The notes: generated by a model from the sequence alone, not told the origin. A stretch of DNA of 63,973 nucleotides, filler included, from Reclinomonas americana ATCC 50394 (GCA_048213135.1; 14 parts of 6 records of this genome joined end to end with filler, not necessarily neighbours in it), one strand, 5' to 3'. Counted from the first letter of the whole stretch, positions 1,048 through 49,634 are shown. Program-made: numbers and translations.

Positions 1048-3551
1048 TTACACAAGCAGGACGGCGTTGATGCAGCCGTCGAGTTCGGGATTGTTGGTGA
1101 CCTGGGCGTACTTGCCCCACACAATCTACCACGACAAAAAATAAGAGTGAGACACGTGTTTCTCCTCCTCGTTCCCCAGACAGATAAAAAAACAGACCTT
1201 GCCACCGGGTGTTACGAGGCCGAGATCTGACACGTTGACCTCGAGGATTGTGCCCTTGGTGATGACGCCTAGTGTGGTGAACATGTGCGATTGCGGGTTC
1301 TTCTTCACGCCGATAATGTCCAGGCAGAAGGTTGCCTGTGCATCAAACACACAATCATAAGTATTGAGATGAGAGGCGAAGCAAGCGAATAGAATCAGGG
1401 AAAGCAGAGAGGGAGAGGGGGAGAAAGAGAAAGGATAAGCAATGTCCTGCACGGTTTACGAGTCCTGTACGCATGGAGATGCGAGCGCACAGCACAGACA
1501 CCATGTACAGAGGATATTCTGGGTCGCAACCGAGCGAGTCAACAGGATTAACCAGGTAGATCGCACACGCCGAAGCGCAGTGTCTACCGAGTACTGTTTG
1601 ACACGACAAAAACGCGACCCGTGACAGAGAAAGAAAGAAAAGAAGCATCNNNNNNNNNNNNNNNNNNNNNNNNNNNNNNNNNNNNNNNNNNNNNNNNNNN
1701 NNNNNNNNNNNNNNNNNNNNNNNNNNNNNNNNNNNNNNNNNNNNNNNNNNNNNNNNNNNNNNNNNNNNNNNNNNNNNNNNNNNNNNNNNNNNNNNNNNNN
1801 NNNNNNNNNNNNNNNNNNNNNNNNNNNNNNNNNNNNNNNNNNNNNNNNNNNNNNNNNNNNNNNNNNNNNNNNNNNNNNNNNNNNNNNNNNNNNNNNNNNN
1901 NNNNNNNNNNNNNNNNNNNNNNNNNNNNNNNNNNNNNNNNNNNNNNNNNNNNNNNNNNNNNNNNNNNNNNNNNNNNNNNNNNNNNNNNNNNNNNNNNNNN
2001 NNNNNNNNNNNNNNNNNNNNNNNNNNNNNNNNNNNNNNNNNNNNNNNNNNNNNNNNNNNNNNNNNNNNNNNNNNNNNNNNNNNNNNNNNNNNNNNNNNNN
2101 NNNNNNNNNNNNNNNNNNNNNNNNNNNNNNNNNNNNNNNNNNNNNNNNNNNNNNNNNNNNNNNNNNNNNNNNNNNNNNNNNNNNNNNNNNNNNNNNNNNN
2201 NNNNNNNNNNNNNNNNNNNNNNNNNNNNNNNNNNNNNNNNNNNNNNNNNNNNNNNNNNNNNNNNNNNNNNNNNNNNNNNNNNNNNNNNNNNNNNNNNNNN
2301 NNNNNNNNNNNNNNNNNNNNNNNNNNNNNNNNNNNNNNNNNNNNNNNNNNNNNNNNNNNNNNNNNNNNNNNNNNNNNNNNNNNNNNNNNNNNNNNNNNNN
2401 NNNNNNNNNNNNNNNNNNNNNNNNNNNNNNNNNNNNNNNNNNNNNNNNNNNNNNNNNNNNNNNNNNNNNNNNNGATATTTTTCCCTTTCATGCATACAGT
2501 ATCAAGATGCATCAAGAAAAGAACCGAAAGCACACGGACGATGCGCCGGTGGCCGAGGGCGCTGTGCCTGCGTATCTCATGGACCGTGAGCAGCAGTCAC
2601 GGGCCAAGATCCTCTCCAACACCATCAAGCAGAAGCGCAAGGAGAAGGCCGGCAAGTGGGACGTGCCGATTCCAAAGGTGAAGCCGCTGAGCGAAGACGA
2701 AATGTTCAAGGTCATTCGCACCGGCAAGAGGCAACGACGCGGCTGGAAGCGTCTCATCAACAAGGTCACCTTTGTCGGCGAGGACTTTACACGCAAGCCA
2801 CCAAAGTACGAGAGATTTATTCGCCCCATGGCGCTGCGCTACAAGAAGGCGCACGTGACGCACCCCGAGTTGAAGGTGAGGGCGGCGGGGGCGACNNNNN
2901 NNNNNNNNNNNNNNNNNNNNNNNNNNNNNNNNNNNNNNNNNNNNNNNNNNNNNNNNNNNNNNNNNNNNNNNNNNNNNNNNNNNNNNNNNNNNNNNNNNNN
3001 NNNNNNNNNNNNNNNNNNNNNNNNNNNNNNNNNNNNNNNNNNNNNNNNNNNNNNNNNNNNNNNNNNNNNNNNNNNGATGAGTGAATACCCATGATGATGT
3101 CGCGTCTCACAAAGCAGCTATGCTCTCTTCTCTTCTCTTCTCTCTTGCTCTTCTCCTCCTTGCCACGCAACGATTTCTTCATCTCAATCTTCTCCTGATG
3201 CCGCTTCTTGGCAAACAGCTTGGCGCGCAGACCATGCACGCGCTGTGCGAACTCGGCGCGCTTGTGCACCTCACGAGCGGCCTTCTTGCGCCTGAAGCAC
3301 AAGAAAAAACAAAGTGAGTGAGACATGTGCACATTCACATCACCTCCACAAACACACAAAACACAAAACACCACCACTTCTTGCTTTCCCTTTCGCACAC
3401 ACACGCACACACATGCGCGCGAGAGCATACACAGACGTGTAGATGAAGAGAGTGCGTGAGAGGAAGTGAGGAGACGAAACTGTCGCTCAAAGTGGTCGAG
3501 ACGCCGACCGTGTCGGCTGATCCACCGCTCAATGTACTCGTTCTGCGGCAT
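1048..3551 (-). CDS. NSA2: Ribosome biogenesis protein NSA2 (multi-exon; middle exon on an inverted contig)
   Basis: N-terminus [35 protein letters not shown] from 3551. C-terminal exons [46 protein letters not shown] and [25 protein letters not shown], with the stop at 1048-1050. Confidence 0.95.
2500..2875 (+). CDS. NSA2: NSA2 internal exon, on the opposite strand within gap-bounded contig 2474-2895
   Basis: cag|T ATC AAG ATG ... [12 protein letters not shown]...[13 protein letters not shown]...[35 protein letters not shown]|gtgagg. Intron phases match the flanking minus-strand exons. Confidence 0.9.
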
Positions 3552-3972
3552 GCTTTACACACACACACGGGAAAACACGCAAAACACTGAAGAGTCGCCT
3601 CTCTCAAGACGAGTCCAAAAAAAGTGTGAATCAGTCGATCGGCGGTAGCATGGTCGACCGAAGTATTCTTGCAAAGTGCGACAGCGCCAGCACCGTCGAC
3701 AGAAAGCAATGCGTCGTGCTGCGGAGCGCGGAATATGAAACGCAGCGCATCCAGCATGCATTTTTTCAATTCACTGCAGGCACTTCAATGAGAATTCGAA
3801 ATGAGGAAATAAAGCTGTCGCGTTTGCAGCTGTGCGTGGCACACCAGTAAACAAACGACGTCGATCAGAGCTGTATGAAAGATCGCTGTCGGCATTGTTG
3901 TTTTCTCTTATCTTTCTTTGCTTTTTCTGTCGACCGGTCATCCACTGCCATTCACTTCAATCGTGGTGCGCT

Positions 3973-7303: not shown

Positions 7304-9909
7304 GATGGACATGCACAGTCGCTCTCGAGACCATGTGGTGCGCCTCGTCTGAACATGTCTCTCTGCCGCTCTGACACGAGTGTGCTCATCATCCTCGTCA
7401 CTCCTCGTTTGCAGCGTTCGAGAAGGCGATCACATCGCACGCGCTCCACATCGCTTTCTCCTCCCACTTTGCCGCCTTCCACTGGCCACACGTCGTCCTC
7501 ATCAACGTCACCTCCACTCGCCTTTGCAAGCACACCGCCTTTGACAAGGAGCACTGGCAGCAAGAGCGAGTCGAACAAGCACTCTGACGCGTTTATTGGC
7601 AGCTCTGATGATGATGATGATGATGNNNNNNNNNNNNNNNNNNNNTCGGCGATGATGTCGGCGGTCATAAGAGGGAGCGACTTGCTGTGCTGCGCGGTGC
7701 CTCTCTTGTTGCGTTGTGTCTTTTGTTTGTTGCGGGTGTCGACTTGTTTGTTTTCGCTGTTTCTCACTTGTGTTCGGAAATCGTCATGAATGCCTTCCCT
7801 CCCACACACACACTTACACAGCTCATTCGGAGGCTCGACATGTGGTTGCCGCGCGTGACACTGTTCTCCACTTATGCGCTGTTTGTGTGGCAGCACGCCT
7901 TTGCTTGGTGCGTGCTCAACTATCCTTTTATGGGCAATGGGTTTGATGCTGATATATGTCTCTGCATTTTTTTGGTGCTCTGTGCTTTCTCACGCGCAGG
8001 TCTTATGTGGCCTTGACTGTGGCCCTGCACATTGTAGTGCCATTCTTCGTGACGCGTGGAACAGGTAACGCTTGGTGTGTCCAAGAAACCCACGTTCCCG
8101 AACAAATCAGACGTGTTTTTTTTCTTGCTTCGCAGGCAGCAGCCCCTTTTCCAGTTCCATGTGGAAGAACGTGTTTGTGCAGAGCACGGTGCGTGATGTC
8201 TTTTCTGTGTTTCTCGTCTCTGCATGTGTTTACTGATTGATTGATTGATTTCGTGTGGCATACAGCAAGCACGTATTCCGCTGCGTTGGCGGCTTGCCGC
8301 TGTGATCGCCATTGTCGTGCAGGATGTGCTGCGCTGCTGGCTCAGCGTGCCCGCCGATCAGCAGTGGCTGCTGAATATAGTAGGCATCTTGTTCATCCCA
8401 CTGCTTATTCCCGACTTGCCGTGGCTGCAGCTGGCGCTCATCTCTGGAGTTGCGTGTTTTGAGTCTCTTTTTTTGGTGACCTCTGCCGGCGTCTTCGCTC
8501 ACTTGGCACCGAATGCAGGAGGCATTTTCTCCGTTCCTGTCTCTGTTAAACGCGGAGGCCGTCCTTGCCGCCGATGTGGTGCGCTGCGCTTCCACCATGA
8601 CCTTGCATGTTCGCTGTGCTCACCAAGAATGTGCAGCTCATGCTTCTGACCCTTGCGCTGGCCATGCTTGTCGCTGGTTCGTCACTGCGTTCGTGCGTGC
8701 TTCCTTAACCAGGCAACTAACGTTGGCTTGCTTCCCTGGCCCCGTAGGCATGCGTGACTCGTCGATTCGTTGCGTTCCTCCTGTGCTGATCCCTTGTTGT
8801 GCCCTGCTCACTCTATGCATCTATGACACTGGCAACAGAGAGCGAGTTCAAGCAGGCGGTCACAGAAGAACGCCGTGCCAAGGACACACTACAAAGTCGC
8901 AATCGAGAAATGGAGGTACGGTGTCTCTTGCACCACTCTCTCTCTCCCCCAACGCGAGCATGTCCTCACACCTCCCCTCTCTTCTCCAGAGTACGAAGCG
9001 CCTCTTGCAGCGCTCGCTGGAGCAAAAAGTAAGCACCACGTATCACCCACTGCGATGAACACGTCACTTATTCACTCTGTCCCCTTTTTGCCACACGCAG
9101 TCAATCTTTATCAGCCGCGTGAGCCACGAGTTCCGTGGCCCCATCATGGCGCTGTCGCAGCTCATCGAGGAACTCAGTGAGCACCCGTCGGTCACCACTA
9201 ATCAGAAGGCCATTGATCTAGTCACTGGTGAGTCGGCGCACTGCCTTGTTCTGCGCGATTGTCGTTGTTGTGCTCACCGCGGCACGCAGATGCACATGGA
9301 GCTTGCATCGTGCTGGCCAATCTGGCTGACCAGGCGCTGGAGTACATGAAGCTGGTGCGCCTCCGTGGTAGAGCAACCCTTCTCAAACGTCTTTCTCACT
9401 TCGGCGGTGTAACAGGATGAGGACTCGGTTGCCGCGGGTGTTTCGCCAACCGCGCAGGCTCCCAGTGCCGTACAGCCACTCGTGCAGTCGTGCGCAAACG
9501 CCTTTGTATCACTAGCAACACAAACTGGCAAGACATTGAGGGTACTGCCGCACACTGCTCCGGCACACTGCCATGGTTTTTTATTGACTAAATCGCCCTC
9601 TGCTTGCAGTTGGCTCCACTGACACCTGAGCTGGACCGCTACGTGTTTCGGGATCAGTCGGCCTTTATTCGTGTCATGTCCAATCTGTTGTCCAATGCGG
9701 GTGTGTGTGCTGTGCTCATTCGCCTGCAGTGTTCCCTGTCTTCCTTGCATGTTCTCATCCGTTCCCGACAGTCAAGTACACGGAGCGCGGAAACATTGTG
9801 GTCGAGGTGACACTGCTGGCTGGTATTCCACGACCACACCACATACAAGTGTCTGTCACTGACACTGGCGTAGGCATTCGCCCGGAGGATCAGGTACTGT
9901 TGTTGCTCA

Positions 9910-9950
<41 letters not shown>

Positions 9951-12173
9951 ACTCCTTCACTCAATTCACTCCTTATTGTGCACACAGGGCAAGATCTTTG
10001 AGCCGTTCGAGCAGGCCGGTTCACCAAACACTGGTCGATACTATGGTGTCGGTCTCGGTGCGTCTTATGCTCCTTTATCGCACGTCATCTGATCACGATC
10101 TGAATGTGTTCTGCCTTCTACAAGGTCTGAGTATCTGCCGCGAGACCCTGGCCATGCTTGGCGAATCTGTGTGGGTGGAGTCCCCGCTGGATGTCGTTGC
10201 GGGCACGGGTTCACGGTTCTCCTTCACGTTCCCGGTGCACTTTTCGCCCTCGGATCACGAGAGAGAATACGAAGGTGAGTACGTCGCGAATTACCTGGCG
10301 ATAATGGATCGCTGATGTTTTTTTCTGTGATCTCCGCAGCCTCGTCACTAACGCGCTCTCGCGGTGTTTCCATGTCGGCGGCTACGGGTACCGCACCGAC
10401 GCCATCTTCATTACCTCCTCGGCTACTGGCCTCCTTGTCGCAGACGCTGTCGTCGTCCTCGTTGTCGTCGGTGGCGGCTGCAGCGGCGACGGCAGCGACA
10501 GCGACCGCCGCGGCAACCGCCACGGCGACGTATGCGGCGTCGGATGTGCAGACTGCCGAACACCAAGTGATCCATCATCCCGTGCACCAGCGACCCTTGT
10601 CCAGCCGGTCGGCACTGCCGCCGCGCTACGGGCACGCCAGAGACCACCGCTTTCTCCATGCAACGCACCCACACCCGCCACCGCCACCGCCACCGCCGCC
10701 GCCAGTAATTGCTGGCGATGGCGGTGCTGCATCGGCGATTCCACCAATGGCCGTGGGTGGTCATCGATCCGTCGCTGTACCGTCGCCCCTGGCCGACAGT
10801 GGTTTCAGTCGGAAGCTGCGAAATCGGCGCGGTCACGTCTCGGGCAGCTCGGTCGAGTCGCGTTCATCGTCGCGTACCAGTGGCAGCATACACACGGGTG
10901 GCAGCCAGGAGAGCATCACCTATACGCCTGGATCCACGGGAGTGGTGATGCCCTTGGGTTCGCCGCCGCACATGGTGGAGTCGTATCGCGCCTCGGGTCC
11001 GCGTGGTCGGTCGGTGCCGACCTCGCCAGATCTGAGTCCCGGTCGCACGTCACCCGTTGCCAGTGGCAGCTACGGCAGCGGTGAGGATTCGCGAGTGGGA
11101 CGCGGCACACTGCTGGAACCTCCTCGCCTCTACGGCAATCACCATTCGTTGTCGGGACCTGCTGCAGAAGCCGCGGCAACAGCAGCAGCGGCGGCGGCGA
11201 CGGCGGCAGCAAGAGGCGCGCGATCGAGGACCGCCACCGCCACACGGTGCAGCAGTGACTCGGCGTCACTGACGGCCGCCACCGCCGGCGACGAGTCCTC
11301 GCGGGCAAGTTCCGCCGAGCTCGCCGCATCGGAGTCGACCACCGGAGCCACACAGAGCGGCATCTCCACCAACAGCACGGTGGCGACTGCAGCCGCGGAG
11401 GCAGAATCGCGAACATTCCACGTGTTTGTCTGCGACGACAATCGCATGGTGCTGCGACTTGTCGACAGGATGGTCAACAAGCTGTTTACAGAGGTGCGTG
11501 CTCGGATGCATTCGCGTCTGTGCGCGTCTGCCGTTGCTCATTGCACGAGCCGCACAGGTCACCAAGCACTACAAGGTACCGTGGAAACTGCAGACGCACG
11601 CATTCGCCAGCGGCGAAGAGCTCCTTGCATTCGCGGCTCGGTTCGTGGAGGACCCACGCGTCAGGTCGCAATCTGTTCGCGACCTGGTAGTCACCGGTAC
11701 GCATGTTGTTGTGTTTTTTTTGTTGTGTGATCTTCACATGTCTCTCACTTTGCCTTCGTGTCGTTTCTCTCTCGTTTTTCGCGCATGTCCATGCAGACTT
11801 TCAAGTTGCGTCTCGCGCTGGTGCTGCTGTACTTTTCCCTCTCTTTCTTTATCCTCAACCTAACCTCGCGCCTCGCCAGATGCCCGGCCTGAATGGCGAG
11901 GAGACGGCACAGCAGTTGAAGCGACTGTTTCGCAATGCCCAGTTGCCCGTTCCGACTGTGGTGTGCCTCACCGGCGAGGACGTATTCTACGAGCAGCGCC
12001 GTCGCGAATTTACGCGACCTGCTGGAGAGATCGAATCGCCGAGTGGCCTCGATGGCGTAATCCTGAAATCAAAGGAGCGCGAAGAGCTCACGGGCATCCT
12101 CGAGCGTCTCGTACATCGGGCGCGCGGGGCATGCCACGCCGTAGGTGCATCCTCGGCACAAGTTCGCTCATGA
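7304..12173 (+). CDS. Membrane-bound hybrid sensor histidine kinase/response regulator (5' end uncertain)
   Basis: Hydrophobic exons ~7820-8830. H-box FISRVSHEFRGPIMAL (~9100-9150), N-box MSNLLSNAVKYT, G1 VTDTGVGI, F-box KIFEPFEQ and G2 GVGLGLSIC. A long S/A/P linker precedes the receiver VFVCDDNRMV...DLVVTDFQMPGLNG...VVCLTG...DGVILK. Confidence 0.9.
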
Positions 12174-12566: not shown

Positions 12567-14963
12567 CCGGCGATGCCTCCTCACCACCCGCTGCACCGGC
12601 TGACGGCGATGCGGCCGCAAGAGCTGCAGCCTCACCACCCGCCGCCGCCGCAGCAGCAGCCGGAGCGGCACCAGAAGGCGAAGTGGCAGCAGCCGCAGCC
12701 GGCGACGCGACCAGCTTCTCCTCAATCTTCTTGTCCACCTCGTGCACATCAATGCCACGCTCCGCCAGCACCTGCTCACGCGGCTTGGCCGCGCCGAAAA
12801 TGCTCGACGGTCGTTGATCCGCAAGCTAACACAAGAAACAAGTGTGAGGGAAAGGGAACGACTCATGAGTACAGAGTGAAAAAGCGCGCAACAGTGTTCA
12901 GGGGCGCATCGGTGCTGCGCGGGGCCAGGTGGAGCACCGGGCGCGGCTTGGCCGGCTCGGCGCCACTGCTGTGTGGCCTGTCAAACGCTGCAGCGGAAGA
13001 GAGGAAGGAGGCGGAGTCAGCAGTTGCACCAGGCAAAAAGAACATAAAAAAACGAAACAGCGCTGTGGTCGGAGCTCACGACGCGGTCTCTCGGCGTTGA
13101 AGACGTTGACGTACAGCTTGTTGGCACGGAGAGGCTGGCGGAAGCGAGAGGGGTGGGAGGTGAGTGCGCGGGCGACGCATGTGGAGTGAATGAGAGACAG
13201 AAAATGTGCTTGCTCACGATTCCATCCTTGGCCACGGCCGCCTTCAGTGCGTCGAGGCTGTTGAACTGCACGTATGCATAGGGGCGGTCGGTTTGGAACA
13301 AACGAATGTCCTCGACGCTCTCCTGCAAGCACACCAGTGGGTGAGTCGAAGCGCTCCACACACACACACGGGCGACCGGCGGGCGAGCGAAACTCCAATG
13401 TCCTGGAAAAAGTGGAAAATGTCGTCCTCCGTGGTCTTGTCGTCGATGCGGTCGACGTACACGGCAAACGGCGGTCCCTCCGGCAACACCACCGGCGGTC
13501 GGGTCGACGACGGTGGCGCAGCACCACCTTCGCGATCGCGACCGAACGAGTACTCGCGACGCTGTGCCATGGAAAGAGAGTCAACAACACGAAGACGCTG
13601 CTTCCTTGCCAGATGACGACGAAACTGGGCGGTCCTGGCGAGACTCTGGCGGCGGGCCCGACGGCACCTCGCCCCTGCGCACATCACCCCAGTCCAAGTC
13701 GTCGCGGGGAGGCGGGCTGTTGGACAATGATCAACGATGACAAACGTGAGTCTCGTCAGCCACGCAAATAGGCGCACACATGCCACACGCACCGCTCGCC
13801 ACGGCCGCCCTCACGCGGTCCACCAAAGCGATCACCGCCACGATCACCGCCACGATCGCCACCACCGTAGCGATCGCCGCCACCACGGTCGCCACCACCA
13901 TAGCGATCTCCGCCGCCACGGTCGCCACCTCCGTAGCGATCGCCGCCGCCGCGGTCGCCACCACCACCAAAGCGATCGCCACCGCCGCGGTCGCCACCGT
14001 ACGAACGGCGTTCGCCGCCACCGCCGTACCGGTCGCCGCCACCGCGATCGCCACCACCATAACGATCACCGCCACCAAAGCGATCGCCACCACCACGATC
14101 GCCACCACCACCACCACCCCTCGGAGGAGGCGGACCCTCGCCGCCCGAGCGCCAATTGCTGCTGGTCTCGGAGCGAGTCGGGCCGGCATCGGCCTCGTCC
14201 TCACCACCAGCATCGCTGCGCTCACGACGCCGATCACCACCGCGTTCACGATCGCCGCCCGCCCACGCACCACCTCGCGGAGGCTGATACGCATTGGGGT
14301 TGGGCGCCGAACCGCCGCCCGAGCCAAGATTCGGCAGATTCGACGACAGGCCAAGAATGTCTGCATTACGCACAGCATGATCAGCTGCTGCCAAATCACA
14401 CACACACGATGCCAGCAAGCAAGCAAGCATGCACACACCATCGTCACCGGCATCGGCCCAGCTGCGCTCTGTGCGTGTGTGCACACGAATGACAGGAGTG
14501 GTGTGAGTGAACATTCCTCCTCTCTCTCATTGTGCTCTCCCGTGTGGAATATCGCAAGAGCAGGCGACTCAACTGGGATCCACCATGCCCGACAGCACCA
14601 CTGTCTTGCTGCCCTTCTTATCCTTCTTCTTGTCCTTCTTGCCCTTGCCGCCGGCCTCGTCGCCGCCGCCACCCGCAGCGCCACCAGAGGCCCACTCTGC
14701 GCAAACCAAAAAAGGACAGTCATTAGCATCTCTCACACACAAGAGAAAGTTGCGTGTGTATGTGAGGGGCTAAATCGAGGAGAGTGCGTGTGTGTGTGTG
14801 CTGGCGTGCTGCTGCCGATGTGCATGCCGACGCACATTTCGCACACAAAACACACGCTTTTATCCCCCGCGCTGCCTCTCTCCGCCCCCACTCTGCCACC
14901 AACACACAACGCGCACACACACAGGCGAAGCAGACACGCACCGTCAAGATCCCGATCGCCCAT
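12567..14963 (-). CDS. EIF4B: Translation initiation factor eIF4B-like (runs into a gap at the 3' end)
   Basis: SWAD motif, GGDRY/GGDRF repeats (13800-14120), RRM LPEGPPFAVYVDRI...RPYAYVQF and C-terminal SIFGAAKPREQVLAERGIDVHEVDKKIE. Confidence 0.8.
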
Positions 14964-33934: not shown

Positions 33935-35014
33935 ATGCGGACGGCGAGGTTGTGGATGGTCTTGTACAGCGTCGCGCGCACAAATTGCTCCACCGTCGGC
34001 ATGTGCACGTACCACGTGTAAATGGTCTTGTCCGTCCGATGATCGGCGGTGCGTGGGATTTCCTGACGCCCAGCGATCAGCCGCTACGCATTCAAGGACG
34101 GTGGCAGAAATGGAAGGCATACCTGCAATTTGACCACTCCCTGCTGCAGCATGCGGTACATCAACTCGCGAACCTCGTTCGGTGCCGCCAGTGCACGCTC
34201 CACAATCTGCCGGCCAAGGCATGGTTAAGTATTATGCGCATCAAACCACGCACTCTGTTTCTTCCTCCCTCTCTCTCTCCCTCTCCCTCTCCCTCTCCTC
34301 CCCCTCCGCACACGCACCTGCTTCTGCTCCAGCTGATTGAATTCGAGGAGCATGCGGAAGATACGGCCACCCAGCAAACCAAACTTCTCCTCGACAAAGC
34401 GCTCCACGTGCACGGAACGGATGCGTCGCATGACCTCACCAAACTGGATGACGTACGTGCCACCATTCGAGTGCGAAACAGTCTCCAACACACCCAGATG
34501 CCGATGCGCCAGCGTGTCCAGACTCGCTTGCATCTCGTGACGGCTGATTAGCGTCGTCGACGGAAGCTTGTTCAGAATGCTTTCGAAAGTGATGGGTGCT
34601 GCAGCAGAGGTCAGGAGTCTGCCTGTGGGAGCACCATTCGAAAGTAGGGACGAAACTGCTGGTCTCCAGATTGGGATTGCGCTCCGTGGCGCGTGAGCAC
34701 TCGAGAATCACCGAAAACGACTCGACGGCAGCCGGATTCGCATTCTGTCGCACATACTCCAACAAAACCTGCGTGTCAGGGGGGTGAATTCAAGCGTGTC
34801 TCCACCCCACGCATGCACACGGGTTCAACGCAACTTCGTGTCGATACAGAATGTGAAACTGCGTCACATTGATCGTCCAGTACCGCTTGTCTTCTGCATC
34901 GTCGGCATCGCCACCGCCACTGCCGCTGCCCGAACCGAATCCGAACAACGAGTCCACATTCATCGCACCGTCATCGCCGCCCGCATCGCCGCCCGTTCTC
35001 TGACGCTTGCGCGG
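33935..35014 (-). CDS. POLR3C: RNA polymerase III subunit RPC3/RPC82, central exons (contig appears inverted)
   Basis: YWTINVTQFHILYRHE, GGTYVIQF...VERFVEEKFGLLGGRIFRMLLEFNQLEQKQI and LQEIPRTADHRTDKTIYTWYVH...LYKTIHNLAVR. Confidence 0.88.
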
Positions 35015-37916: not shown

Positions 37917-37947
<31 letters not shown>

Positions 37948-39540
37948 CACAATAGCGGACCTCATTGTCTCTACACAAAGACCAGTCGACGCCAGCGGTG
38001 AGGAGCTCCTGCCGCCCAAGAAACAGGCGGCAACGCACACTGGTCACCCGGCGATTTCGATCCTTCCAGATGTAGACGATGCGCGAAATGTGGTGCCAGT
38101 TGGCGTGCACCGGACCACCGAGACGATGGTAGATAAAGTCACCGGCTGCCGCAAAAGAGGTAAACATAAAGAATCAAGCAAGGAGAGAGAGAAGGAGAGG
38201 TTGTACGCAACAGCGATACGTGACAAAGTCGGTGCGTGTCTCGAACAGATGCATCTTGGAAAAGTGAATGTGATTGCCCACGAGACGGAACGGGCACAGC
38301 AGCAGGGCGTCCTTGAACGACTGCTCCGCATAACAGTGACGCGGGTGTGACGGCACAAACCGACCCGGCTGTGCACAGTGTCGGCATCCCACCACCAAGC
38401 AGCAACCACAGACGGGCACACACACACACAACACACACGCACCTCGCAGAGTGACGACGGCTGCGCGGGTACATCAAACTCGCGACATTGCTCGGCGGCT
38501 TTCATGAATTGGGAGCACATTGCTCGCTGATACCAGCTGTGTAAGGAGTGAGCGCGTGCGGATTGACTTGGTTCGCTATTACTCTATGCATGCGAGACGC
38601 AACTCGGAAAACGCGCCTGCTCCACATTCGGGTGCTGGTGGCGGTGGAGGACTGGGGAGGCTTGCGTCCGACTCGCAGCTGTCGCTGTCGTGAGCCGTTG
38701 TGACGGTGAACGCGTCCGGTAGAAATTCGCTTTCATACGCTCCCATTGAGCGGCGTGCCTTGTCCTGCTCTCGTAGAGCATCGACAGTTCGCCACATTGC
38801 CTGCATGTGCTCCACGTGGTGCTCGTCGGCCATTTCTGCACAAGAGGAGGTGAGGGAGACGGCTTGGCGAGCGAGGACGAGAGAAACTGCAATTCTACGC
38901 ACCAATGAACTGACGCACATCACAGGCGTCCATGGCCGTCAGAATGCCCGCCGCCTCCTGCTCCTCCACAATGAGTCGATGGCACGCTGCCTCCAGTTCC
39001 ATCAGCGTTCCCCACGTCAGCGCCGCGTCGGCATCCTGCTCTCAGAGAGGAATGTTAGGCACGGGAGCAACACGATGGGAAGCTTTTAACTCACTTGACC
39101 AGGTACGCGCATCGGCAGCGAGAACCGATGCCGGAAGCTGACAGGCACCACAAACATTCACGGTGAGGTCGCGGTGCACAACTCAAAAAGGATAGCCATA
39201 TCACCTTCCACTCTCACTGGGTGGTCGGTCGGCCCATTGCTCCATGCATGCCGACAGAAACCATTCCGTCGCACCCTGCGTTGTGCATTGTGCGCACATC
39301 AGCAGGCAAGCACACTGAGCGAGGCCAGGACTGTACGCACCTCGAATGTGAGACGGCAGAGGGTAAGCAGCTGCAACACTGGCCGGTTGAGGGTGACAGA
39401 GAGAGCCACCAAGGTTGCAATATTGAAGCCGTGGTCATGCATGTATTTTTCCACCATGGTCTTCTCCAACTGGCACAGATGTGGTGGTTTTCCGTGAATG
39501 CTCCTGCGGCGCGGCTTGATGATGAGAGTGCAGATTGCAG
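36239..39540 (-). CDS. SET-domain histone lysine methyltransferase (SUV39/EHMT-like) with an upstream BAH-like domain; 5' end in a gap
   Basis: SET motifs KGWGV, ICEYAGE, IDAMFRGNVSRWLNHSCDP and GEELTINYG, with post-SET CSC...C. Pre-SET entry DDISLGRESIPLP. BAH-like GDFIY...ISRIVYIW...NEVFATNH...CRV...FVCRR. Confidence 0.85.
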
Positions 39541-39640
39541 NNNNNNNNNNNNNNNNNNNNNNNNNNNNNNNNNNNNNNNNNNNNTTAATTAATTAANNNN
39601 NNNNNNNNNNNNNNNNNNNNNNNNNNNNNNNNNNNNNNNN

Positions 39641-40434
39641 ACCATGATCTACTGGGCGTGCTTTCGCAAAATGTTTTCGCTGTCGGCGCGCTCGCCAGTG
39701 GTGGTCGCCAGTCTCTCGCTCTCCACGTCCCTGTTCGAGTACTTTGCCAGTCAGCTCCTCTTTGCGGAGGAGGTGTTTCCCGAGTTCTCACGCGCCACGC
39801 GCATGGTGCCCGTGTGTGTCGAGGATCGCAGTGGTGTGGAGATGCCCATGGCGTTTGTGTTTCTCGGCTGGTGCAGCCGCCGCGACAAGCATGTGTTGGA
39901 CGACTGCTACTCGGTGCTGGTGGAACCTGCCTCCTGTCAGCGTGTGAAGAGACCAGGCACCGAGCGCACAGGCATTCCGCCTGACTTGTTGGCCTTGGTT
40001 CGTGCGCGTTTTCTCTTTTGCTTACAAGGTTGCTTTCGCTGTCGTCTCACTCGCCGAGGCGGGTGCGTTGCAATCGCAGCAATGCAGCCGACGTCGTCAG
40101 CCATATGCTGTAGTGTGTGCCTTCAACTCTCAGTGGCCAGTGATGATTCAAGCGTCACGGTGCTCGTTCCAGGTGGTGGAAACCACTCCCGTGCTTGCCA
40201 CACTGCTGGATGCCTCGTGGCCGGAGGACGACGACTTGTACATATTCTCGTGGACCGACGGCAGCGTGACAGTGGGCACCAGCGAGTCGCGCTTGCGTGG
40301 CTACATTCACGAAGAAGAGTTGCGTGGACCTGCCGTCAAATCTCGGCCGTCTTCACGTTGTTGGTTGATTCGTGTGGGCGCGCAATAGGCCGCCAGTGGC
40401 TCCATTCTTGTCGCCACCGTTGCAGGCGTCGCTG
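39641..40434 (+). CDS. Fragment of an unidentified multi-exon gene
   Basis: Coding-like segments (SLFEYFASQLLFAEEVFPEF; VVETTPVLATLLDASWPEDDDLYIFSW) with plausible GT-AG borders; no family recognised. Confidence 0.35.
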
Positions 40435-41789
40435 AAAAGAGACTTTTGGGAGGAGTACTGGATTATACACAGGTTCCAGTGATGATTATGTGTGTTTGTT
40501 GTNNNNNNNNNNNNNNNNNNNNNNNNNNNNNNNNNNNNNNNNNNNNNNNNNNNNNNNNNNNNNNNNNNNNNNNNNNNNNNNNNNNNNNNNNNNNNNNNNN
40601 NNNNNNNNNNNNNNNNNNNNNNNNNNNNNNNNNNNNNNNNNNNNNNNNNNNNNNNNNNNNNNNNNNNNNNNNNNNNNNNNNNNNNNNNNNNNNNNNNNNN
40701 NNNNNNNNNNNNNNNNNNNNNNNNNNNNNNNNNNNNNNNNNNNNNNNNNNNNNNNNNNNNNNNNNNNNNNNNNNNNNNNNNNNNNNNNNNNNNNNNNNNN
40801 NNNNNNNNNNNNNNNNNNNNNNNNNNNNNNNNNNNNNNNNNNNNNNNNNNNNNNNNNNNNNNNNNNNNNNNNNNNNNNNNNNNNNNNNNNNNNNNNNNNN
40901 NNNNNNNNNNNNNNNNNNNNNNNNNNNNNNNNNNNNNNNNNNNNNNNNNNNNNNNNNNNNNNNNNNNNNNNNNNNNNNNNNNNNNNNNNNNNNNNNNNNN
41001 NNNNNNNNNNNNNNNNNNNNNNNNNNNNNNNNNNNNNNNNNNNNNNNNNNNNNNNNNNNNNNNNNNNNNNNNNNNNNNNNNNNNNNNNNNNNNNNNNNNN
41101 NNNNNNNNNNNNNNNNNNNNNNNNNNNNNNNNNNNNNNNNNNNNNNNNNNNNNNNNNNNNNNNNNNNNNNNNNNNNNNNNNNNNNNNNNNNNNNNNNNNN
41201 NNNNNNNNNNNNNNNNNNNNNNNNNNNNNNNNNNNNNNNNNNNNNNNNNNNNNNNNNNNNNNNNNNNNNNNNNNNNNNNNNNNNNNNNNNNNNNNNNNNN
41301 NNNNNNNNNNNNNNNNNNNNNNNNNNNNNNNNNNNNNNNNNNNNNNNNNNNNNNNNNNNNNNNNNNNNNNNNNNNNNNNNNNNNNNNNNNNNNNNNNNNN
41401 NNNNNNNNNNNNNNNNNNNNNNNNNNNNNNNNNNNNNNNCGATTGCAGCAGCAGCAGTGTGCTGTCGGCGATGAGGAGCAGCGCCTGGCTGCGGAGAGCA
41501 CTGCGCTGCGATCCATGCTGAGTCTCTGTTCCATCGATGTCGGTGCGCTCTTTGTGAGGTTTGCCTTGCTTCTGTCACTCGATCTCATCTGTCGCGTGTT
41601 CAGTGGAGGAGGAAGACCGCATCGCGTGGCCACAATCCATGTCGCTGCCACGCGGCATCTATGTCGAGGAGTCGCTGGCGGAGGCCGCGNNNNNNNNNNN
41701 NNNNNNNNNNNNNNNNNNNNNNNNNNNNNNNNNTTAATTAATTAANNNNNNNNNNNNNNNNNNNNNNNNNNNNNNNNNNNNNNNNNNNN

Positions 41790-42219: not shown

Positions 42220-42352
42220 GGTCGCCCACAACGAGTGGCGCAAGCGCCAGCGATGAGAAAGGGAGGGGTTTCTCCTCACACACAAAACACGACGACGAAG
42301 GGAGGACAAGTTCTTTCGTTTAATAACACCGATGCATCGTCGGAAAAGGGTT

Positions 42353-45300
42353 TCACACCCGTCGCCGCTTCCGTGCAGCTGGGGCAACTGGTGGCTCATT
42401 GTCAGCCTCAGCAGCATCCTCATCGCCCTCATCGCCGNNNNNNNNNNNNNNNNNNNNNNNNNNNNNNNNNNNNNNNNNNNNNNNNNNNNNNNNNNNNNNN
42501 NNNNNNNNNNNNNNNNNNNNNNNNNNNNNNNNNNNNNNNNNNNNNNNNNNNNNNNNNNNNNNNNNNNNNNNNNNNNNNNNNNNNNNNNNNNNNNNNNNNN
42601 NNNNNNNNNNNNNNNNNNNNNNNNNNNNNNNNNNNNNNNNNNNNNNNNNNNNNNNNNNNNNNNNNNNNNNNNNNNNNNNNNNNNNNNNNNNNNNNNNNNN
42701 NNNNNNNNNNNNNNNNNNNNNNNNNNNNNNNNNNNNNNNNNNNNNNNNNNNNNNNNNNNNNNNNNNNNNNNNNNNNNNNNNNNNNNNNNNNNNNNNNNNN
42801 NNNNNNNNNNNNNNNNNNNNNNNNNNNNNNNNNNNNNNNNNNNNNNNNNNNNNNNNNNNNNNNNNNNNNNNNNNNNNNNNNNNNNNNNNNNNNNNNNNNN
42901 NNNNNNNNNNNNNNNNNNNNNNNNNNNNNNNNNNNNNNNNNNNNNNNNNNNNNNNNNNNNNNNNNNNNNNNNNNNNNNNNNNNNGAGGAGGAGGCACCGC
43001 AGTCGCCACCGCCGGCCGCCAAACCACGAGCGCGTCGCGGCAAGCCTGCCTCTCAGGAAATGGAGGAGGAAGAGGAGGAGGAGGCACCTCAGTCGCCACC
43101 GCCGGCTGCCAAGCCACGAGCGCGTCGCGGCAAGCCTGCTTCTCAGGAAATGGAAGAGGAGGAGGAAGAGCCCCCGGCGCGAGGTGGGCGACGAGGTGAG
43201 TGCTTGCCCTGCCTTTGTTGTCCTTGCGCTTTCATTTTTTGGTGCAACAAGTGGTGACCCGATCTGCATGCAGGCAAGAAGGCTGCGCCGGCACCAGCAA
43301 AGGGTCGACGTCGAGCAGCTGCGGAAATGGAGAGCGACGGTGAAGGCGACGACGACGANNNNNNNNNNNNNNNNNNNNNNNNNNNNNNNNNNNNNNNNNN
43401 NNNNNNNNNNNNNNNNNNNNNNNNNNNNNNNNNNNNNNNNNNNNNNNNNNNNNNNNNNNNNNNNNNNNNNNNNNNNNNNNNNNNNNNNNNNNNNNNNNNN
43501 NNNNNNNNNNNNNNNNTCCTCCTCCTCCATTTCCTGAGAAGCAGGCTTGCCGCGACGCGCTCGTGGCTTGGCGGCCGGCGGTGGCGACTGCGGTGCCTCC
43601 TCCTCGTCATCGGTAACATCGTCGGCCTCTTCGGCCTTGGACGACGCGGCACGGGCGCCGGATCTTCGACAACAAGTGAGGGAACGGAAAAAGACAAGTG
43701 AAAAGACACGACGATGTGCGCGCAACTTGCCAGTCTTGCCAGTCTTGCCAGTCTTGCCAGCCTTGCCAGCCTTGCCGGTCTTGCCCGCTCGAGTCGCCTG
43801 TTTCTTGGTGGGTGGTGTTGGCGGCGGCGCCTCGTCGTCGGTGACATCTCCGTCAACCGACTCGGCCTTGTCTTCCGCTGCGTCGTCGTCGTCGTCGCCA
43901 TCCGACTCGCGAGCACGCTTCTTTGACCGAGCGGCGGCAGCCGACGGTGACTTGCCGGGGGTCATCACTGCACCACGCACGACTTCAGCAATCAGCAAAG
44001 GCAGGAACGCCTGCGAGCATACTCACCAGTGGGGCGAACGCCAGATGCCTTCTCCAGCGAGGCGAGGAAGGAGTCGATCACCTGCAGGCGATAGGCAGCC
44101 ATGCCGACCTTGAGCGGCACAATGGCTGAACGGAATCGCTCCAATCTGCTCCGCTCAGACAAGTGAGGGCGCATGTCGCAACAGGTGCGAAAAAGCACAG
44201 GCGACGCAACAGCAGCTTGGCATGCTCACGATGGGTGCGCTGCGCGTACGGTACCAACCCGGCCAGGAACTCCACATTCTCACCGCGCTTGGCGAGGGCG
44301 AATTCCAGACCAGAGCTGCACGCGTGACCATGAGCGCGATGGTTCAAGGCAAGAAAACATCAAAACACACACACGTACCGCACAATCTCCGAGACATTGG
44401 TGCGCAGCTTGTCCTTGGAAAACTGGTGCGACTTGCTGAGGTTGACGGCGAGGCCAACAAAGTCGGCATAGAACTCTGCCACACCACCTCCCGTCAGCAA
44501 GTACCTGTGGGGGGTGGCAACATGCAGGCACTACGCCGACTCACCCATGATGGAGTCCTCGTCGACAGCACCGTCGGCCGCCTCCACATTCTCCAGCGTC
44601 TCGCGACACCGCACAAACTCGCGCTTCATGGCCTCCACCTCGGCAATACCCTCCTCACTCGGCTCCTCCCTCTTGAGGGTTTGGAAAAAGTGCTTGAGGC
44701 CTCTGTGTGCACATGCGAGTGGGTTCAGGATGCACCAAGTGGATGATAGGGGACGAATGCAAGCAAAAACGCAACAGGAACACACGCGTCGACGCCTCGG
44801 GACCCTTGCGGTGCATGAGTTGCTGGCGGTGGTAGTGTGACAAGACGGCCGATGCGTGCGCCACACTAATGTGCTGTCGGAGTACGGCCTGGGGCGGGCG
44901 GAGACGAACACAAGTCAGCGAGCGCAGCACCTACAGTAGCAGTAGCGCAAGCATGCGCACACACACACCGCGCCGAGACCACGAATCAGGTCCATCTTCT
45001 TGTCCCACCGCTCGAAACCAGTGTACAGATCTCCGTCCTCGATCTCGGCCTCGGTGAATCCGTTCTCATCTATTCAGCGTGACATGTTGGTCTCGGACCA
45101 GACGTAAAGAAATAGATGATACACGGTCGCCTACCCTTCTCCAAGAACTCGCCAAAGAACACAATGATTTTGCGTTCGAGTGGAGCCGCCGGTTCGAAAC
45201 GCAGTGAGGCCGGCTGCTCGGCACCACCAAACAGCAAAATCAAGTTCAACAGCACGCATGTAGCCTGCGACACTGGCGCGTGAGCAAAGCGACAGAGAAA

Positions 45301-48300
45301 AGAAAAACACGCAGTCGACTCACCAAGTGTTGTACTGGTTCGCGCACATCGTCAATCAGAGCCTCCATCAAGGTCACCACAGACTGGCGTCGCTCCACAA
45401 ACGCGGACACCCTGGCACCTCACGTCAGGATAACGACCGAGAAAGAAACCAACGGCGAAGAACGGAACTTGGCATCGCGAGCACTGCCACCCTCGCCCTC
45501 CTCCAGCAACTGCACCATGTCAACAGCCTCCCACGACAGGATCTGCAGCGCAGACTGCATGGCCAGCACCAGAATCTGCACAACAGCAGTCACACACACA
45601 TGTGCGCGCACACACAGCGGATTTCGAAAGACAATTTACCTCGCTGACAAGGCCACTCGGCGTCGACTCCTCCATCTCCTTCTTTCGGTGGTACTCCAGC
45701 AGCTTGAGCACCGGCTCCAACAGTGCACCCTCGCTGAACGAATCGACCAGATTCACGTGGCGCAGCACGGCCAGCAAGCGTTGCAGATTGCAAAAGAGCG
45801 CCATGCGATCACGCTTGTGCGCACTGGCACCACGACTCTACACCACGCACTCGTGAGAAGGCACATCGAAGGTGCATAGGCAGGTACTCCGACAGCAGAA
45901 CCGACCGTCACGGAGTTGACGGAGGAGGGCAGCTTGGAGCGGAAGGGTGCCACCAGGGCCTCGTACTGTTCCGACGCCGTCTCCTTGAAGGCGTGCTCCT
46001 CACCAAACAACGCATGACGGAAACAGGCAGCTGCTGCAGCGTGCACATCGGCACGGGTGGAGCGCCACATGGCACTGGCGGCAAACGCCAGCACATCCGA
46101 CAGTTCCTGCAGCAAGCAACGGATTGAGTCGTCGACACCAAACTACACATGCACACACACAACTCGCCGTCGGCGATCGCACCTTTTGCTGCTTGAACTT
46201 GGCGAACGACGATATCGGCAGGCACGGGAACAGCGACAAAAGATGCGCCACGGGGTCGCCATCGCCACGCACACACTCCAGCATTTGCGACATGGAGCCG
46301 GTCATGAGACGAATGCACTCGTCGGGCGTCTCCGGCTCATCGGCCGCCACACTCTCTCCTTTCTTGTCCCACAGCGGAGCCGGCCACATGGGAACGCCGA
46401 GGAAGCGCTTCACGGCGGCCACACCGAGACGCACCAGCATGAACTCGGGTTTCTGGGAGAGCATGGTCGACAGGTAAGACATAGTAGTGGAAGACCACAA
46501 AGCAAGTGTGTGTGGAGAGATGCACCAGTGCGTCGCCGACAGCGTCGACCATTTCCGGAGCCTCGCTCGAGTTCTCCGCACCGACTCTCTCGGTGACTGT
46601 CGTCAGCACTTCCACCACTTTGCTGACGTTCTGTAGTACGAAGACAAGGAGGGTCAGGAGATGGGAAAAAGGATGACGAAGAAAGTGTGCGGTTACCTGC
46701 AATGCCTCGGAAACGCCGCTCATGGCGTCGACAACGTAGCACGCGGCAAGATCGTTGCCGGGCCAGGCAGCCAACTGTCGTCGCGCATCCTCGTCATCAT
46801 CACCACCACCTTCGCCACCGGCAATGGGGGCGTGGTAGGACAGCGCAAACTCAGCCAGTGCCTCCAATTCGACACGCTCCACATCCACCGATTGCTTCAC
46901 ACTGCGTGCGCTCTGCTTGCGTCCTCGCTTGCCGCCTTCCCCACTTGCACTGGCCGCAGCAGCGACAGCTTCGTCTTGCTGCTCCGCCACCATGGCCTCG
47001 ACACGCGGCTTGATGGCATACCGGTACACAAACGGTGCGACGGCTCGACGGACGCTCGCGTCGTCGTCGAAAGTGAGTCGAACGACGGCGTCCAGGCGCT
47101 GTTTTCAGAGTGGAGGAGGAGGAGGGAAGTTAAGAGAAGGAGGAGGAAGAGAGGAAGTGGGAGGAGGGAGAAGATGGAGGAGAGGGAGAAGAAGAAGAGA
47201 AACAAGGAGGCGTACCGTGCGCATGTCGGCGAGGGGATCGGCCTTGGCATTCACTGGTTTGAGCGCGCGGCCCGACGATGAGGCGCGGTCGGGGAGGAGG
47301 CCAAGTCTGCATTTTTTGTTCATCACGATCGTCAACAACGAAGACCTCGCGTCAGCCAGCACGCTACCCCGCACACCACGCAACTCCACGAGACGAGTGA
47401 GCAGGCCCATGGCCAGCTTGGCCACTTGCAGATCAACGTCGGCGACCATTTCCACCAGACGCGGGCCGAAACGCTGCAGGAAGCGGGCAAGCTTCGGAAT
47501 GTTGGCCTCGTTCCTGTAGAGCAACTCAAAGACGCCCAGGGAGGCCAGACGAACGCTTGCATCCTGCGCAATGAAAGACTCAGCACACAGCAACAAGAGA
47601 GAGAGAAACGCGCAACACCACGCACCGCATCGTTCAGAGTCCAAGCGGCGTACTTGAGCATCTCGTCCTTGAGGAAGACGGCCGGGTGATTGGCAATCCA
47701 CTTGCCGCTGTTGGTGATGGTGTCCTCGCGAATGGTCGCCGCACTGTCGCGGTACCGCCGATCCACCACGCTTTCGCACAGCGTCTTCATGAGTTCGTCC
47801 AGACGTGTGAGATCGGCCTCGGCCGCGGCGCTGTGTCAACGGAGGTAAGTGTGGAGTCATGGGTGTGGACTGCGGTGGTGGCAACAACGCACTTTGATTT
47901 CTTCGCCGCCGCCTTGTCGACCTGCTTGCGCAACTCCTGCGCCACCTCCACGCACTCGGCCACGATCGCAAACAGGGCGACACAGGCCGTGTGGCGGTAG
48001 GCACGGACAGGGGATCTACGAGGGGTAAGGGGGGAAGGGGGAAGAGGGGTAAGGGGGGAAGGGGGAAGGGGGAGAAGGGGAGGAGAAGGGAGAGTGAGAA
48101 AAGGACGTGCGTGCACGGCTGACAGCTGCACGTGGTAAGTGGACGTGTGAGCGCACCCGCTGAGAATGATTAGCCACGCCAGCACGGTCTCGGAGAATGT
48201 CTCGTCGAACAGAGTCTCACGCGCCGACTTGCTGATGAGCTTGGACCAGAACTCGACAAACTGGCGACGGAAGTTGCGGCCGGCGGTGCCCTTGGCCACC

Positions 48301-49634
48301 AGTGGATACGCGGTGGTCGCGGGTGGCTGTGCATCTCATCGATGAGTTTTGTCTGCAGTCAACACACGAGCGCTATCGGCACACACACGCACCTCCTCCA
48401 GGTCGGCAATCGCTCCGTCCATGTCGATCTCCTCGTCCAGCACTTGCTCGACGGTGAGCGAGCCCTTGCCGCCAGCCGCCTGCCAACAACATTCACGAGG
48501 TGAGTCGCACGCACCACCATCATAACAGAGAAAGAAAGAAAGGCACGGCGCAACTTGAATCACAAAGTTGACGAGCTCCGTCATGGCCTTGTCCTTGGCC
48601 TGCCCGTACCGGTGCAGCCAATCGGTGATGACGGCGACGGTGGCCGGTGCGCGGCCGGATTCGAAGAGCATGCCTGGGGAGGGGAAGGAGAAGGGAAGAA
48701 AAAGGAGAAGAGTGAGAGAAGAAAGACGACAGAGGAGAGGAGAGATGACGAATGCATATGCACAAGAGAGGATGTGGGAAACGCAGCAAGGAGAACAAGA
48801 CGGTGCAGCAAGAGATGAAAGCGAGGAAGAGAAGAGAGAAAGAGAAACTGTGACCACGCACAGCAAGTGAGTCAGAGAGACAGTGCGAAACAAGAACAGC
48901 GAGATGGGAAGGGATGTGGGAAACGAGAACAACAAGAGATGAAAGAGAGGGAAACAAGCGAGAAGAGAGAAAGAGAAACAGTGAACATGCACAGCGGGAC
49001 AGCGAGATGAGGTAGAAGAAGAAAGCAGGCAGAAAGATATGAAGAATGAAAGCAGCAGTAACGAGATCCACTCCCTCACCATGCAGCGACTTGTTGGCGG
49101 CACTCTTTCGTCCTTTCGGAGAACCTCCCGCAGCTGATGCATCCTCCGCCGCTGCCGCCGCCGCCTTCTTGCCGCGCTTCGCCACCGGCTTTGGAGGCGG
49201 CATCAGCGCATCGTCGGTCAACGCCGGTGTCTTCTTGCCGCGCTTGCCAGTCGCCGCCTGCGCCTTCTTGCCACGAGGCTTTCTCTTCGGTCGCTCCTCC
49301 TCCTCCTCGTCCTCCTCCTCCTCGTCCTCTTCCTCATCGTCGTCCTCGTCATCTGCATCGTCATCACTCTGCTCCTCTGCATCGTCTTCGTCGTCCGCGT
49401 CCTCGGGCGGTGAGCTCGGTCCACTCATCACCTGACTGGACGATGAAGATGCCAAGGAGGCTGACGCGCAGACAATGATGATAAGGAGGAAAGGGGGGGA
49501 ATGTGAGAGGCAATTCGTTCAGCATTACCTCGCTGACGAGCGGATCGACGCGGTCCAGGTGAATCCACTTGCATCTCCTCCACGGGTTGTGCCTCCTCTT
49601 GTTCTTCTTCTTCCTCCTCCTCCTCCACCACTCG
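42353..49634 (-). CDS. SCC3: Cohesin subunit SCC3/STAG (SA)
   Basis: DWLHRY...AMTELVNFVIQAAG, YPL...FRRQFVEFWSKL, LSGSPVRAYRHTAC, RRYRD...IRED...GKWI...FLKDEMLKYAAWTLNDADASVRL and RFGPRLVEMVADVDLQVA, with acidic/basic tails at both ends. Confidence 0.93.
42985..43610. repeat. 90-bp coding tandem repeat (EEEEEEEAPQSPPPAAKPRARRGKPASQEM) in the SCC3 tail
   Basis: Copies at 42994 and 43084 on + (period 90) and one at ~43517-43605 on -. Flanking gaps suggest collapsed copies. Confidence 0.85.

Follow-up and report, generated by a model that had tools for sequence, protein, structure and literature searches.

Can one genome begin its introns with two kinds of 5' splice site, one displaced by a base against the other? 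The 5' splice site is commonly pictured as one word read in one register, and shifted or bulged registers are familiar only from rare exceptions in humans that were proved on minigenes. The question was raised by a stretch of DNA from Reclinomonas americana ATCC 50394 (GCA_048213135.1), 63,973 nucleotides (nt) long with its filler and called the window below. There the first-pass annotation had listed 19 donors with an extra T after the GT, and had proposed that they are cleaved at the GT, form a common class beside normal donors and are read in a shifted or bulged register. The window is eukaryotic nuclear DNA with a G+C content of about 57% outside masked runs, and its remaining N runs are gaps.

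Offset donors at the starts of predicted introns

Introns were predicted with two models, which admitted only GT-AG introns of 45-1500 nt and left 22,403 non-N bases unannotated. The blind model, a dynamic programming, drew on codon usage, a loosely defined branch motif and the base that precedes the AG, and its donor information was limited to GT; it gave 70 introns. The signal model used donor matrices (including positions -3 to -1) and acceptor matrices learned from the model's own output. It gave 91 introns, to which a 13-intron model of a histidine-kinase gene, built with the same parameters and lost in a filtering step, was added, making 104. Donors with T at +3 and G at +6 but no G at +5 were classed as offset, and donors with G at +5 as ordinary. 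The 104 predicted introns comprised 29 with offset, 63 with ordinary and 12 with other donors, the last belonging to neither class. Seventeen of the 19 sites listed at first were in this set, and 3171 and 47384 were left out. At least one intron was missed, since an ordinary in-frame intron of the SPT5 gene (28816-28881) was not removed by the signal model.

All 19 sites had T after the GT and G at +6 on the strands given for them. Fourteen had A at -1, as had been claimed, so that the exon end and the first intron G rebuild (C/A)AG. The normal donors were also as described, with GTGCGT 19 times, GTGAGT six times and GTTCG. three times among the 63 ordinary ones. The commonest donor words among all predicted introns were GTGCGT (19) and GTTGCGT (14). 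A tie between donor class and the last exon base was seen in the predicted introns of the window: position -1 was A in 19, T in seven, G in two and C in one of the 29 offset introns, while it was G in 59 of the 63 ordinary ones (p=7e-15). Position -2 of the offset donors was C 12, A 9, G 8 and T 0. The same tendency was found in the blind set, where A stood at -1 in 6 of 10 offset-like donors against 3 of 40 (p=9e-4), and at the eight sites backed by homology (A six times, T and G once each).

The motif was concentrated at intron starts even where the model had no knowledge of it. GTT[GT]CG[TC] occurred at 7 of the 70 blind-model donors and at 59 of the 7258 GT sites of the window, both strands counted (binomial p=1.8e-6), and the blind model hit six of the 19 sites exactly (20984, 29231, 29834, 43726, 45468 and 48554). 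When a two-component mixture with background was fitted to the 70 blind donors, a class of weight 0.22 came apart that had T at +3 (.73) and +7 (.55), C at +5 (.97) and G at +6 (.69); the main class had G at -1 (.71), +3 (.64) and +5 (.78) and T at +6 (.50). GTTGCGT was found 23 times on both strands, and 10 occurrences were expected under a second-order Markov model. The 59 strict-motif sites included 23 predicted donors, two further predicted donors in the kinase gene (8449 and 11805) and the plausible donor 47384. With the ordinary-donor matrix, all offset sites had scores below zero (-0.9 to -10.7). By the gene models, the offset class would account for about 28% of predicted introns, with a blind lower bound of 10-14% (7 to 10 of 70). 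The proposal of a common class is therefore borne out among the predicted introns (29 of 104).

As donors, 18 of the 19 sites were plausible, while 3171 on the minus strand proved to be coding. Eight of them were backed by homology (3480, 11805, 13393, 28577, 28981, 29231, 45468 and 48554) and six by frame logic (6472, 14573, 20984, 29834, 34834 and 43726); four were weak or ambiguous (17975, 30321, 30442 and 47384). Eleven further offset sites were predicted (8449, 12892, 13058, 13625, 34656, 38211, 38603, 40319, 44210, 44775 and 51870). Five of the junctions in SPT5 and STAG (28577, 28981, 29231, 45468 and 48554) were gap-free against homologues, and removal of most of the introns restored the frames; the offset sites are very probably real GT-AG donors cut at the GT, as first supposed.

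Apart from the donor word, the introns behaved like their neighbors. A frameshift or in-frame stop required 21 of 27 offset introns and 48 of 54 ordinary ones, and the flanking coding scores were alike. For 20 of the 27, neither matrix gave a positive score to any other GT in phase. The median length was 69 nt for offset and 76 nt for ordinary introns. The acceptor was CAG in 27 of 29 against 52 of 63, the remaining offset acceptors being one TAG and one AAG, and 22 of the 29 offset and 42 of the 63 ordinary introns had a CTNAY branch-like motif at a distance of 8-45 nt from their 3' end. All 29 offset introns started with GT and ended with AG, which is partly by construction, the models admitting no other ends.

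Several other origins were considered and rejected. Mean local alignment scores were 7.9 between offset introns (300 pairs), 8.0 between offset and ordinary ones (1175) and 8.2 between ordinary ones (1081), introns longer than 130 nt and those of the other class being left out of this comparison. Offset introns were thus no more alike mutually than they were to ordinary ones, and are not copies of one mobile, introner-like intron. The donor consensus of U12-type introns is /RTATCCTT (the slash marks the junction); it was contained in none of the 29 offset donors, which all read GTT[GTC][CAT]G. If cleavage instead followed the AG, the introns would have the form TT...GN and lack constant ends, since G follows the acceptor in only 10 of 27. 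A homopolymer sequencing error turning GT into GTT would keep G at -1 and leave the phases unmoved. Judged by their sequence, the offset sites are very probably genuine 5' ends of short GT-AG spliceosomal introns that are ordinary apart from the donor word.

Genes of the window and the individual sites

The window consists of short contigs strung together and separated by thirteen identical spacers (44 N, TTAATTAATTAA, 44 N) with stops in all six frames; the adjacency of genes across any spacer is therefore not real. Genes were placed by Pfam searches on 224 long open frames and by reading by eye.
12467-12566, 18595-18694, 23879-23978, 32918-33017, 39541-39640, 41690-41789 and 49636-49735: spacers, first seven
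53059-53158, 55591-55690, 58342-58441, 59626-59725, 61339-61438 and 62873-62972: spacers, last six
From 3554, minus strand: NSA2 gene
6111-6711, plus strand: Tim17-family gene (Pfam Tim17 on the upstream open reading frame)
To about 12220, plus strand: histidine kinase with a receiver-like end
12567-14963, minus strand: RRM gene
25886-31762, plus strand: SPT5 gene
About 34084-35014, minus strand: POLR3C-like gene
36239-39035, minus strand: SET/BAH gene
43517-49428, minus strand: STAG cohesin subunit gene

The proteins had distant relatives only. The best identity of the N-terminal SPT5 reading frame was only about 30%, to plant proteins. The STAG reading frame had 29 matches at up to 45% identity in a full HMMER scan of 1.84 billion representatives, and none in a word-indexed search. 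A mitochondrial-carrier reading frame matched diplonemid transcriptomes at 55-56% identity and one from Phalansterium at 52%. No close relatives in which donor use could be compared were found, two metagenome scans giving no locus or five loci at 47-58% identity. Since every tested protein has distant relatives only, the source lineage seems to be barely sampled.

Homology was judged against solved NSA2 chains, 8 of the 24 SPT5 homologues found and 8 of the 29 STAG matches. A Pfam search with ten exon pieces (E<=10) gave two useful matches, RRM_1 and POLR3C_WHD. The sites in the first half of the window were as follows.
3292..3480, minus strand: offset intron CA/GTTTCGT of NSA2 (signal model); exon 1 has 23 codons and a split codon, or 24 residues
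6472..6565, plus strand: offset intron AA/GTTTCGC of the Tim17-family gene; frameshift and in-frame stop, no in-phase alternative GT scoring above 0
8449..9100, plus strand: predicted offset donor GA/GTTGCGT of the histidine-kinase gene (signal model only), acceptor uncertain
11797..11804, plus strand: micro-exon of 8 nt, ACTTTCAA, found automatically by the signal model between introns of 100 and 75 nt
11805..11879, plus strand: offset intron CAA/GTTGCGT after the micro-exon of the kinase gene (signal model, frame restoration, receiver-like peptide)
12826..12892, minus strand: predicted offset intron CT/GTTGCGC of the RRM gene (signal model); frameshift and stop
12988..13058, minus strand: predicted offset intron CT/GTTTCGT of the RRM gene (signal model); frameshift
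13323..13393, minus strand: offset intron GA/GTTTCGC within the RRM domain; frameshift, upstream exon ending in ..FFQDIG
13562..13625, minus strand: predicted offset intron CA/GTTTCGT of the RRM gene (signal model); frameshift and stop
14469..14573, minus strand: offset intron CA/GTTGAGT; in-frame stop 2 nt past the donor, no alternative in-phase GT, acceptor uncertain
17779..17975, minus strand: possible offset intron AA/GTTGCGT, weak (signal model only); upstream exon anchored at a contig edge, several acceptors scoring alike
20915..20984, minus strand: offset intron AG/GTTGCGT (blind model); frameshift and stop

In NSA2, exon 2 aligned from residue 25 of four solved chains; together with the 24 residues of exon 1, this fixes the donor at 3480. 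The GTTGCGT at 3165..3171 on the minus strand was rejected as a donor, the 14-letter read-through peptide aligning to NSA2 residues 63-74 in all four solved chains. At 6472 the blind model preferred a GT 9 nt downstream, and the acceptor may be 6565 or 6580. The exon after 13393 matched positions 24-59 of the RRM_1 profile, starting at exon residue 2.

The micro-exon of the kinase gene deserves a closer description. Together with the preceding split G, ACTTTCAA encodes D-F-Q, completing DLVVT-D-FQ-MPGLNG at the end of the gene, and it restores the frame of the following MPGLNGEE..., whose coding score was +5.3, the other two frames scoring -31.4 and -22.9. The Asp of this peptide would be the phospho-acceptor of a receiver domain. 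The receiver exon had no relevant match in Pfam (E<=10) or PDB searches, so the receiver reading of 11805 draws on DLVVT-D-FQ-MPGLNG and the usual spacing of receiver residues.

The sites in the second half were these.
28577..28645, plus strand: offset intron CT/GTTGCGT of SPT5; ..AGSQLP/GSIVVEK.. gap-free against all eight homologues, retention adding 23 residues
28981..29040, plus strand: offset intron GA/GTTGCGT of SPT5; LHDLVQLD/PEMWGIVV gap-free against the homologues reaching it, phase 2, in-frame stop
29231..29292, plus strand: offset intron AAG/GTTTCGT in KOW4 of SPT5 (blind model); VVEGPNK/GRQGTVKHIY gap-free against all eight
29834..29904, plus strand: offset intron GC/GTTGCGT of SPT5 (blind model); frameshift, no alternative in-phase GT, protein region variable
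30321..30407, plus strand: possible offset intron CA/GTTGTGT in the C-terminal repeat region of SPT5; 87 nt, open in frame, ambiguous
30442..30510, plus strand: possible offset intron GA/GTTGCGT in the same region (signal model only); 69 nt, open in frame
34769..34834, minus strand: offset intron AA/GTTGCGT of the POLR3C-like gene (signal model), demanded by an in-frame stop in the read-through
34599..34656, minus strand: offset intron CA/GTTTCGT of the POLR3C-like gene (blind model); frameshift, no alternative in-phase GT
38537..38603, minus strand: predicted offset intron GA/GTTGCGT of the SET/BAH gene (signal model); frameshift and stop
38146..38211, minus strand: predicted offset intron CT/GTTGCGT of the SET/BAH gene (signal model); in-frame stop, no alternative GT
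40319..40425, plus strand: predicted offset intron GA/GTTGCGT (signal model)
43664..43726, minus strand: offset intron AA/GTTGCGC with an AAG acceptor at the STAG C-terminus (blind model); 63 nt, open in frame, low-complexity region
44146..44210, minus strand: predicted offset intron CT/GTTGCGT of STAG (signal model); frameshift, homologue alignment uninformative
44703..44775, minus strand: predicted offset intron CT/GTTGCGT of STAG (signal model); gaps nearby in the homologue alignment
45412..45468, minus strand: offset intron AA/GTTCCGT of STAG (blind model); in-frame stop, junction without a gap against eight homologues
47307..47384, minus strand: plausible offset intron GA/GTTGCGT of STAG; 78 nt, open in frame
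47610..47625, minus strand: tandem in-phase donors of STAG 9 nt apart, ordinary GTGCGT at 47625 and offset GTTGCGC at 47616
48480..48554, minus strand: offset intron AA/GTTGCGC of STAG (blind model); ELVNFVIQ/AAGGKGSLTVEQ gap-free against eight homologues
51802..51870, minus strand: predicted offset intron CA/GTTGCGG (blind and signal models); in-frame stop

Among the SPT5 sites, the homologue P0001 stops at the 28981 junction, and 29834, 30321 and 30442 fall within the C-terminal part, where the protein is variable; at 30321 the blind model took a GT 3 nt downstream. At 34834 the blind model took GTGACGC 33 nt upstream, and two pieces of the POLR3C-like protein had no relevant match in PDB searches. 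The intron at 47384 is open in frame and was for this reason removed by no model. Its read-through would give about 38 extra residues compared with eight STAG homologues, which makes 47384 a plausible donor, and its removal leads to ..LLTRLVE-LGLLPD... The models chose 47616 of the tandem pair, but this choice was rejected, since it gives three extra residues against all eight homologues while the ordinary 47625, 9 nt upstream, fits. The two are a possible alternative 5' splice-site pair.

Some other features of the window were observed. Four predicted donors had CG further downstream and a purine at +3, namely GTGACGC at 17519 (minus), GTAACGC at 8065 (plus), GTAACCGC at 46696 (minus) and GTGCACGC at 38110 (minus); all four had G at -1, unlike the GTT class, and they may be bulge-type sites or mis-calls. 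The SPT5 intron at 27654-28309 (plus) reached 656 nt, roughly ten times what is usual here, and had many CT and GA runs. An open frame of 537 codons without a Pfam match (59727-61338, plus; coding score 147) contained, when read in another frame, a repeat with a unit of roughly 40 residues. The open frame at 62929-63972 (plus), which continues past the window end, was dense in cysteine repeats of DSL and EGF type (DSL E=1.8e-40, six stretches). On both strands of 58785-58913, clustered weak matches to models of microRNA precursors from plants and animals (E 0.02-0.8, falling far short of the gathering scores) suggest a long hairpin or inverted repeat.

Register of the offset donors and the snRNA question

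The offset sites exist, are enriched at intron starts, restore frames and alignments, and differ from ordinary donors in their exon side and phases. These last two properties bear on the register. In all four ordinary donors that combined T at +3 with G at +5 (three GTTCG. and one GTTGG.), -1 was G, so the exon base follows the position of the downstream G and not the T. The phases 0/1/2 were 13/5/11 for offset and 32/24/8 for ordinary introns (p=0.011), and the former fitted the latter moved by one base (p=0.54). Based on the -1 bases and this phase shift, the shifted register is favored over a bulged U, two readings that had been left side by side at first.

We consider it rather probable that the offset donors are real intron starts in a shifted register, making up about a quarter of the genome's donors. 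The offset word would be the normal word (C/A)AG/GTGCGT with T replacing the first intron G, giving (C/A)A/GTTGCGT. The recognition step would then meet the same word where it normally stands with respect to the coding frame, while the only cleavable GT would lie one base upstream, so that the exon would end one base earlier. U1, canonical or adapted, would bind in the shifted register, and the cut point would be set afterwards by the GU and the later U6 and U5 steps.

Several results weigh against this explanation. The 104-intron set is partly circular, being self-trained with positions -3 to -1 included, which makes both classes look sharper than they are, and the blind set, with ten offset-like donors, is small. 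The intron side did not match position by position: A and T were found 0 and 7 times at +4 of the 29 offset donors against 12 and 4 times at +3 of the 63 ordinary ones (p=0.012), C at +5 was found in 27 of 29 against C at +4 in 31 of 63 (p=9e-4), and -1 of the offset donors differed from -2 of the ordinary ones (p=0.017). Moving the ordinary motif by one base does not simply reproduce the intron side of the offset donor. Moreover, the offset donors paired poorly with U1, taken as the canonical 5' end (11-mer) from Tan et al. 2016 (PMC4856993), which may not be that of the host. In RNAduplex, which ignored pseudouridine and U1-C, they reached a mean of -1.83 kcal/mol, weaker than their own shuffles (-2.95 +/- 0.31). 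The best register was +1 in only 11 of 29 sites and offset 0 in 2 of 29, all of them weak; the helix by which human shifted sites work is interrupted by GC or TC at +4/+5. By the same calculation the ordinary donors averaged -7.19 kcal/mol (shuffles -4.32 +/- 0.21), 59 of the 63 taking the canonical register. Canonical U1 in the shifted register would, on these computed energies, not be a sufficient account of the offset donors.

The sites might instead be mis-called, the GTT heptamers being coding or intronic and the real donors lying elsewhere or not being GT. Two sites were indeed wrong (3171 of the first list and 47616 of the models), six of the 27 offset introns have a length divisible by three and contain no stop, the models admit nothing but GT-AG, and the junctions are known here from gene models and homology only. 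Mis-calling is nevertheless hard to reconcile with the enrichment in the blind set, the eight homology-backed junctions, the 21 of 27 introns needed for the frame, and the loss of constant ends when the cut is moved by one base; we hold it to be very improbable. A bulged U, with U1 and U6 paired in the normal register and one U of +2/+3 looped out, would describe the offset motif as the ordinary GT(G/T)CGT plus one U, and such registers were validated in human cells, with 68 5' splice sites predicted for bulge +2/+3 (PMC4856993). A bulge, however, keeps -1 opposite C9, so that G would be expected there and was observed in 2 of 29 offset donors against 59 of 63 ordinary ones. The phase distribution was shifted, and RNAduplex found no bulge solution: at no offset site did it pair the junction at offset 0 and the intron at offset +1. 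A bulged register is hence improbable in our judgment, if somewhat less so than mis-calling.

Another explanation keeps the sites and changes the partner: a second U1 (e.g. with A for C at position 8), or re-tuned 5' splice-site-binding sequences of U1 and U6, would serve each donor class with its own small nuclear RNA (snRNA). Since the offset donors pair worse than shuffles with canonical U1, although their motif is sharp (C at +5 in 27 of 29, T at +7 in 22 of 29), an adapted or variant U1 or U6, as proposed at first, comes into question. In silico the change C8A brought the offset mean to -3.97 kcal/mol and weakened the ordinary one to -3.15, whereas U5G improved both (-4.83 and -9.40). Against this stands the very good fit of the ordinary donors to canonical U1, whose 5' end is nearly invariant among eukaryotes. 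No snRNA gene was found in the window by Rfam at gathering scores, and none of the 13 weak matches at E<=1 was an snRNA. Variant U1 genes do exist in humans (PMC3561869). We regard a dedicated or adapted snRNA as unlikely on present evidence, yet more credible than a bulged U.

Known 5' splice-site systems and what the class would mean

Human 5' splice sites that pair with U1 in a register shifted by +1 were reportedly described by Roca and Krainer in 2009. The offset donors resemble these sites in having U at +3 after the GU, a conserved G at +6, an A at -1 that rebuilds the exon-end AG with the following G, and a cut at the GU. The human sites are rare, whereas 29 of 104 predicted introns have offset donors here. 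Human shifted sites carry AAGU after GUU, which makes a long helix; in contrast, the offset donors, known here from sequence alone, have GC or TC at +4/+5, and their predicted pairing with canonical U1 is below random. Compared with the ordinary U2-type introns of the same window, the offset introns are alike in length, CAG acceptor, CTNAY motif and flanking coding potential, and differ in the donor word offset by one base, the A or T in place of G at -1, the shifted phases and the negative ordinary-matrix scores. They recall U12-type introns in forming a second donor class beside a main one, but lack /RTATCCTT.

The shifted register and one-base bulges have both been described for human 5' splice sites (PMC4856993). 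As in the human bulge +2/+3 register of that paper (Tan et al. 2016), an extra U right after the GU moves the downstream consensus by one base; unlike in its 68 predicted sites, whose exon side keeps the normal register, -1 is G in only 2 of 29. In diplonemids and other Euglenozoa, noncanonical introns have lost GT-AG altogether or have G/GTATG donors, according to PMC12621601. They are likewise a lineage-specific departure from the standard 5' splice-site signal, and diplonemids gave the best matches of the carrier protein; nevertheless, the window keeps GT-AG, with donor words GTGCGT or GTTGCGT. A literature search on shifted U1 pairing, with subscription journals and the organism's genome paper outside its scope, found no lineage with a common shifted class; the sources were human studies and one tunicate paper touching the idea in passing.

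According to the gene models, the host genome would be intron-rich, with offset donors starting about a quarter of its predicted introns. Only tentatively would we go further and suppose two 5' splice-site registers genome-wide, served by an adapted spliceosome (a second U1, or re-tuned U1 and U6), with binding and cutting uncoupled by one base in about one of four introns. Because the offset sites score negative under the ordinary matrix, gene prediction that relies on one donor model would overlook about a quarter of the introns or place them wrongly, including those flanking the 8-nt micro-exon with its presumed phospho-accepting Asp. If GTTGCGT is nearly as common as GTGCGT, as the predicted counts of 14 and 19 have it, this genome would be a natural system for studying how the cut site is set after U1 has bound, and it would likewise suit the question whether snRNAs co-evolve with splice-site classes.

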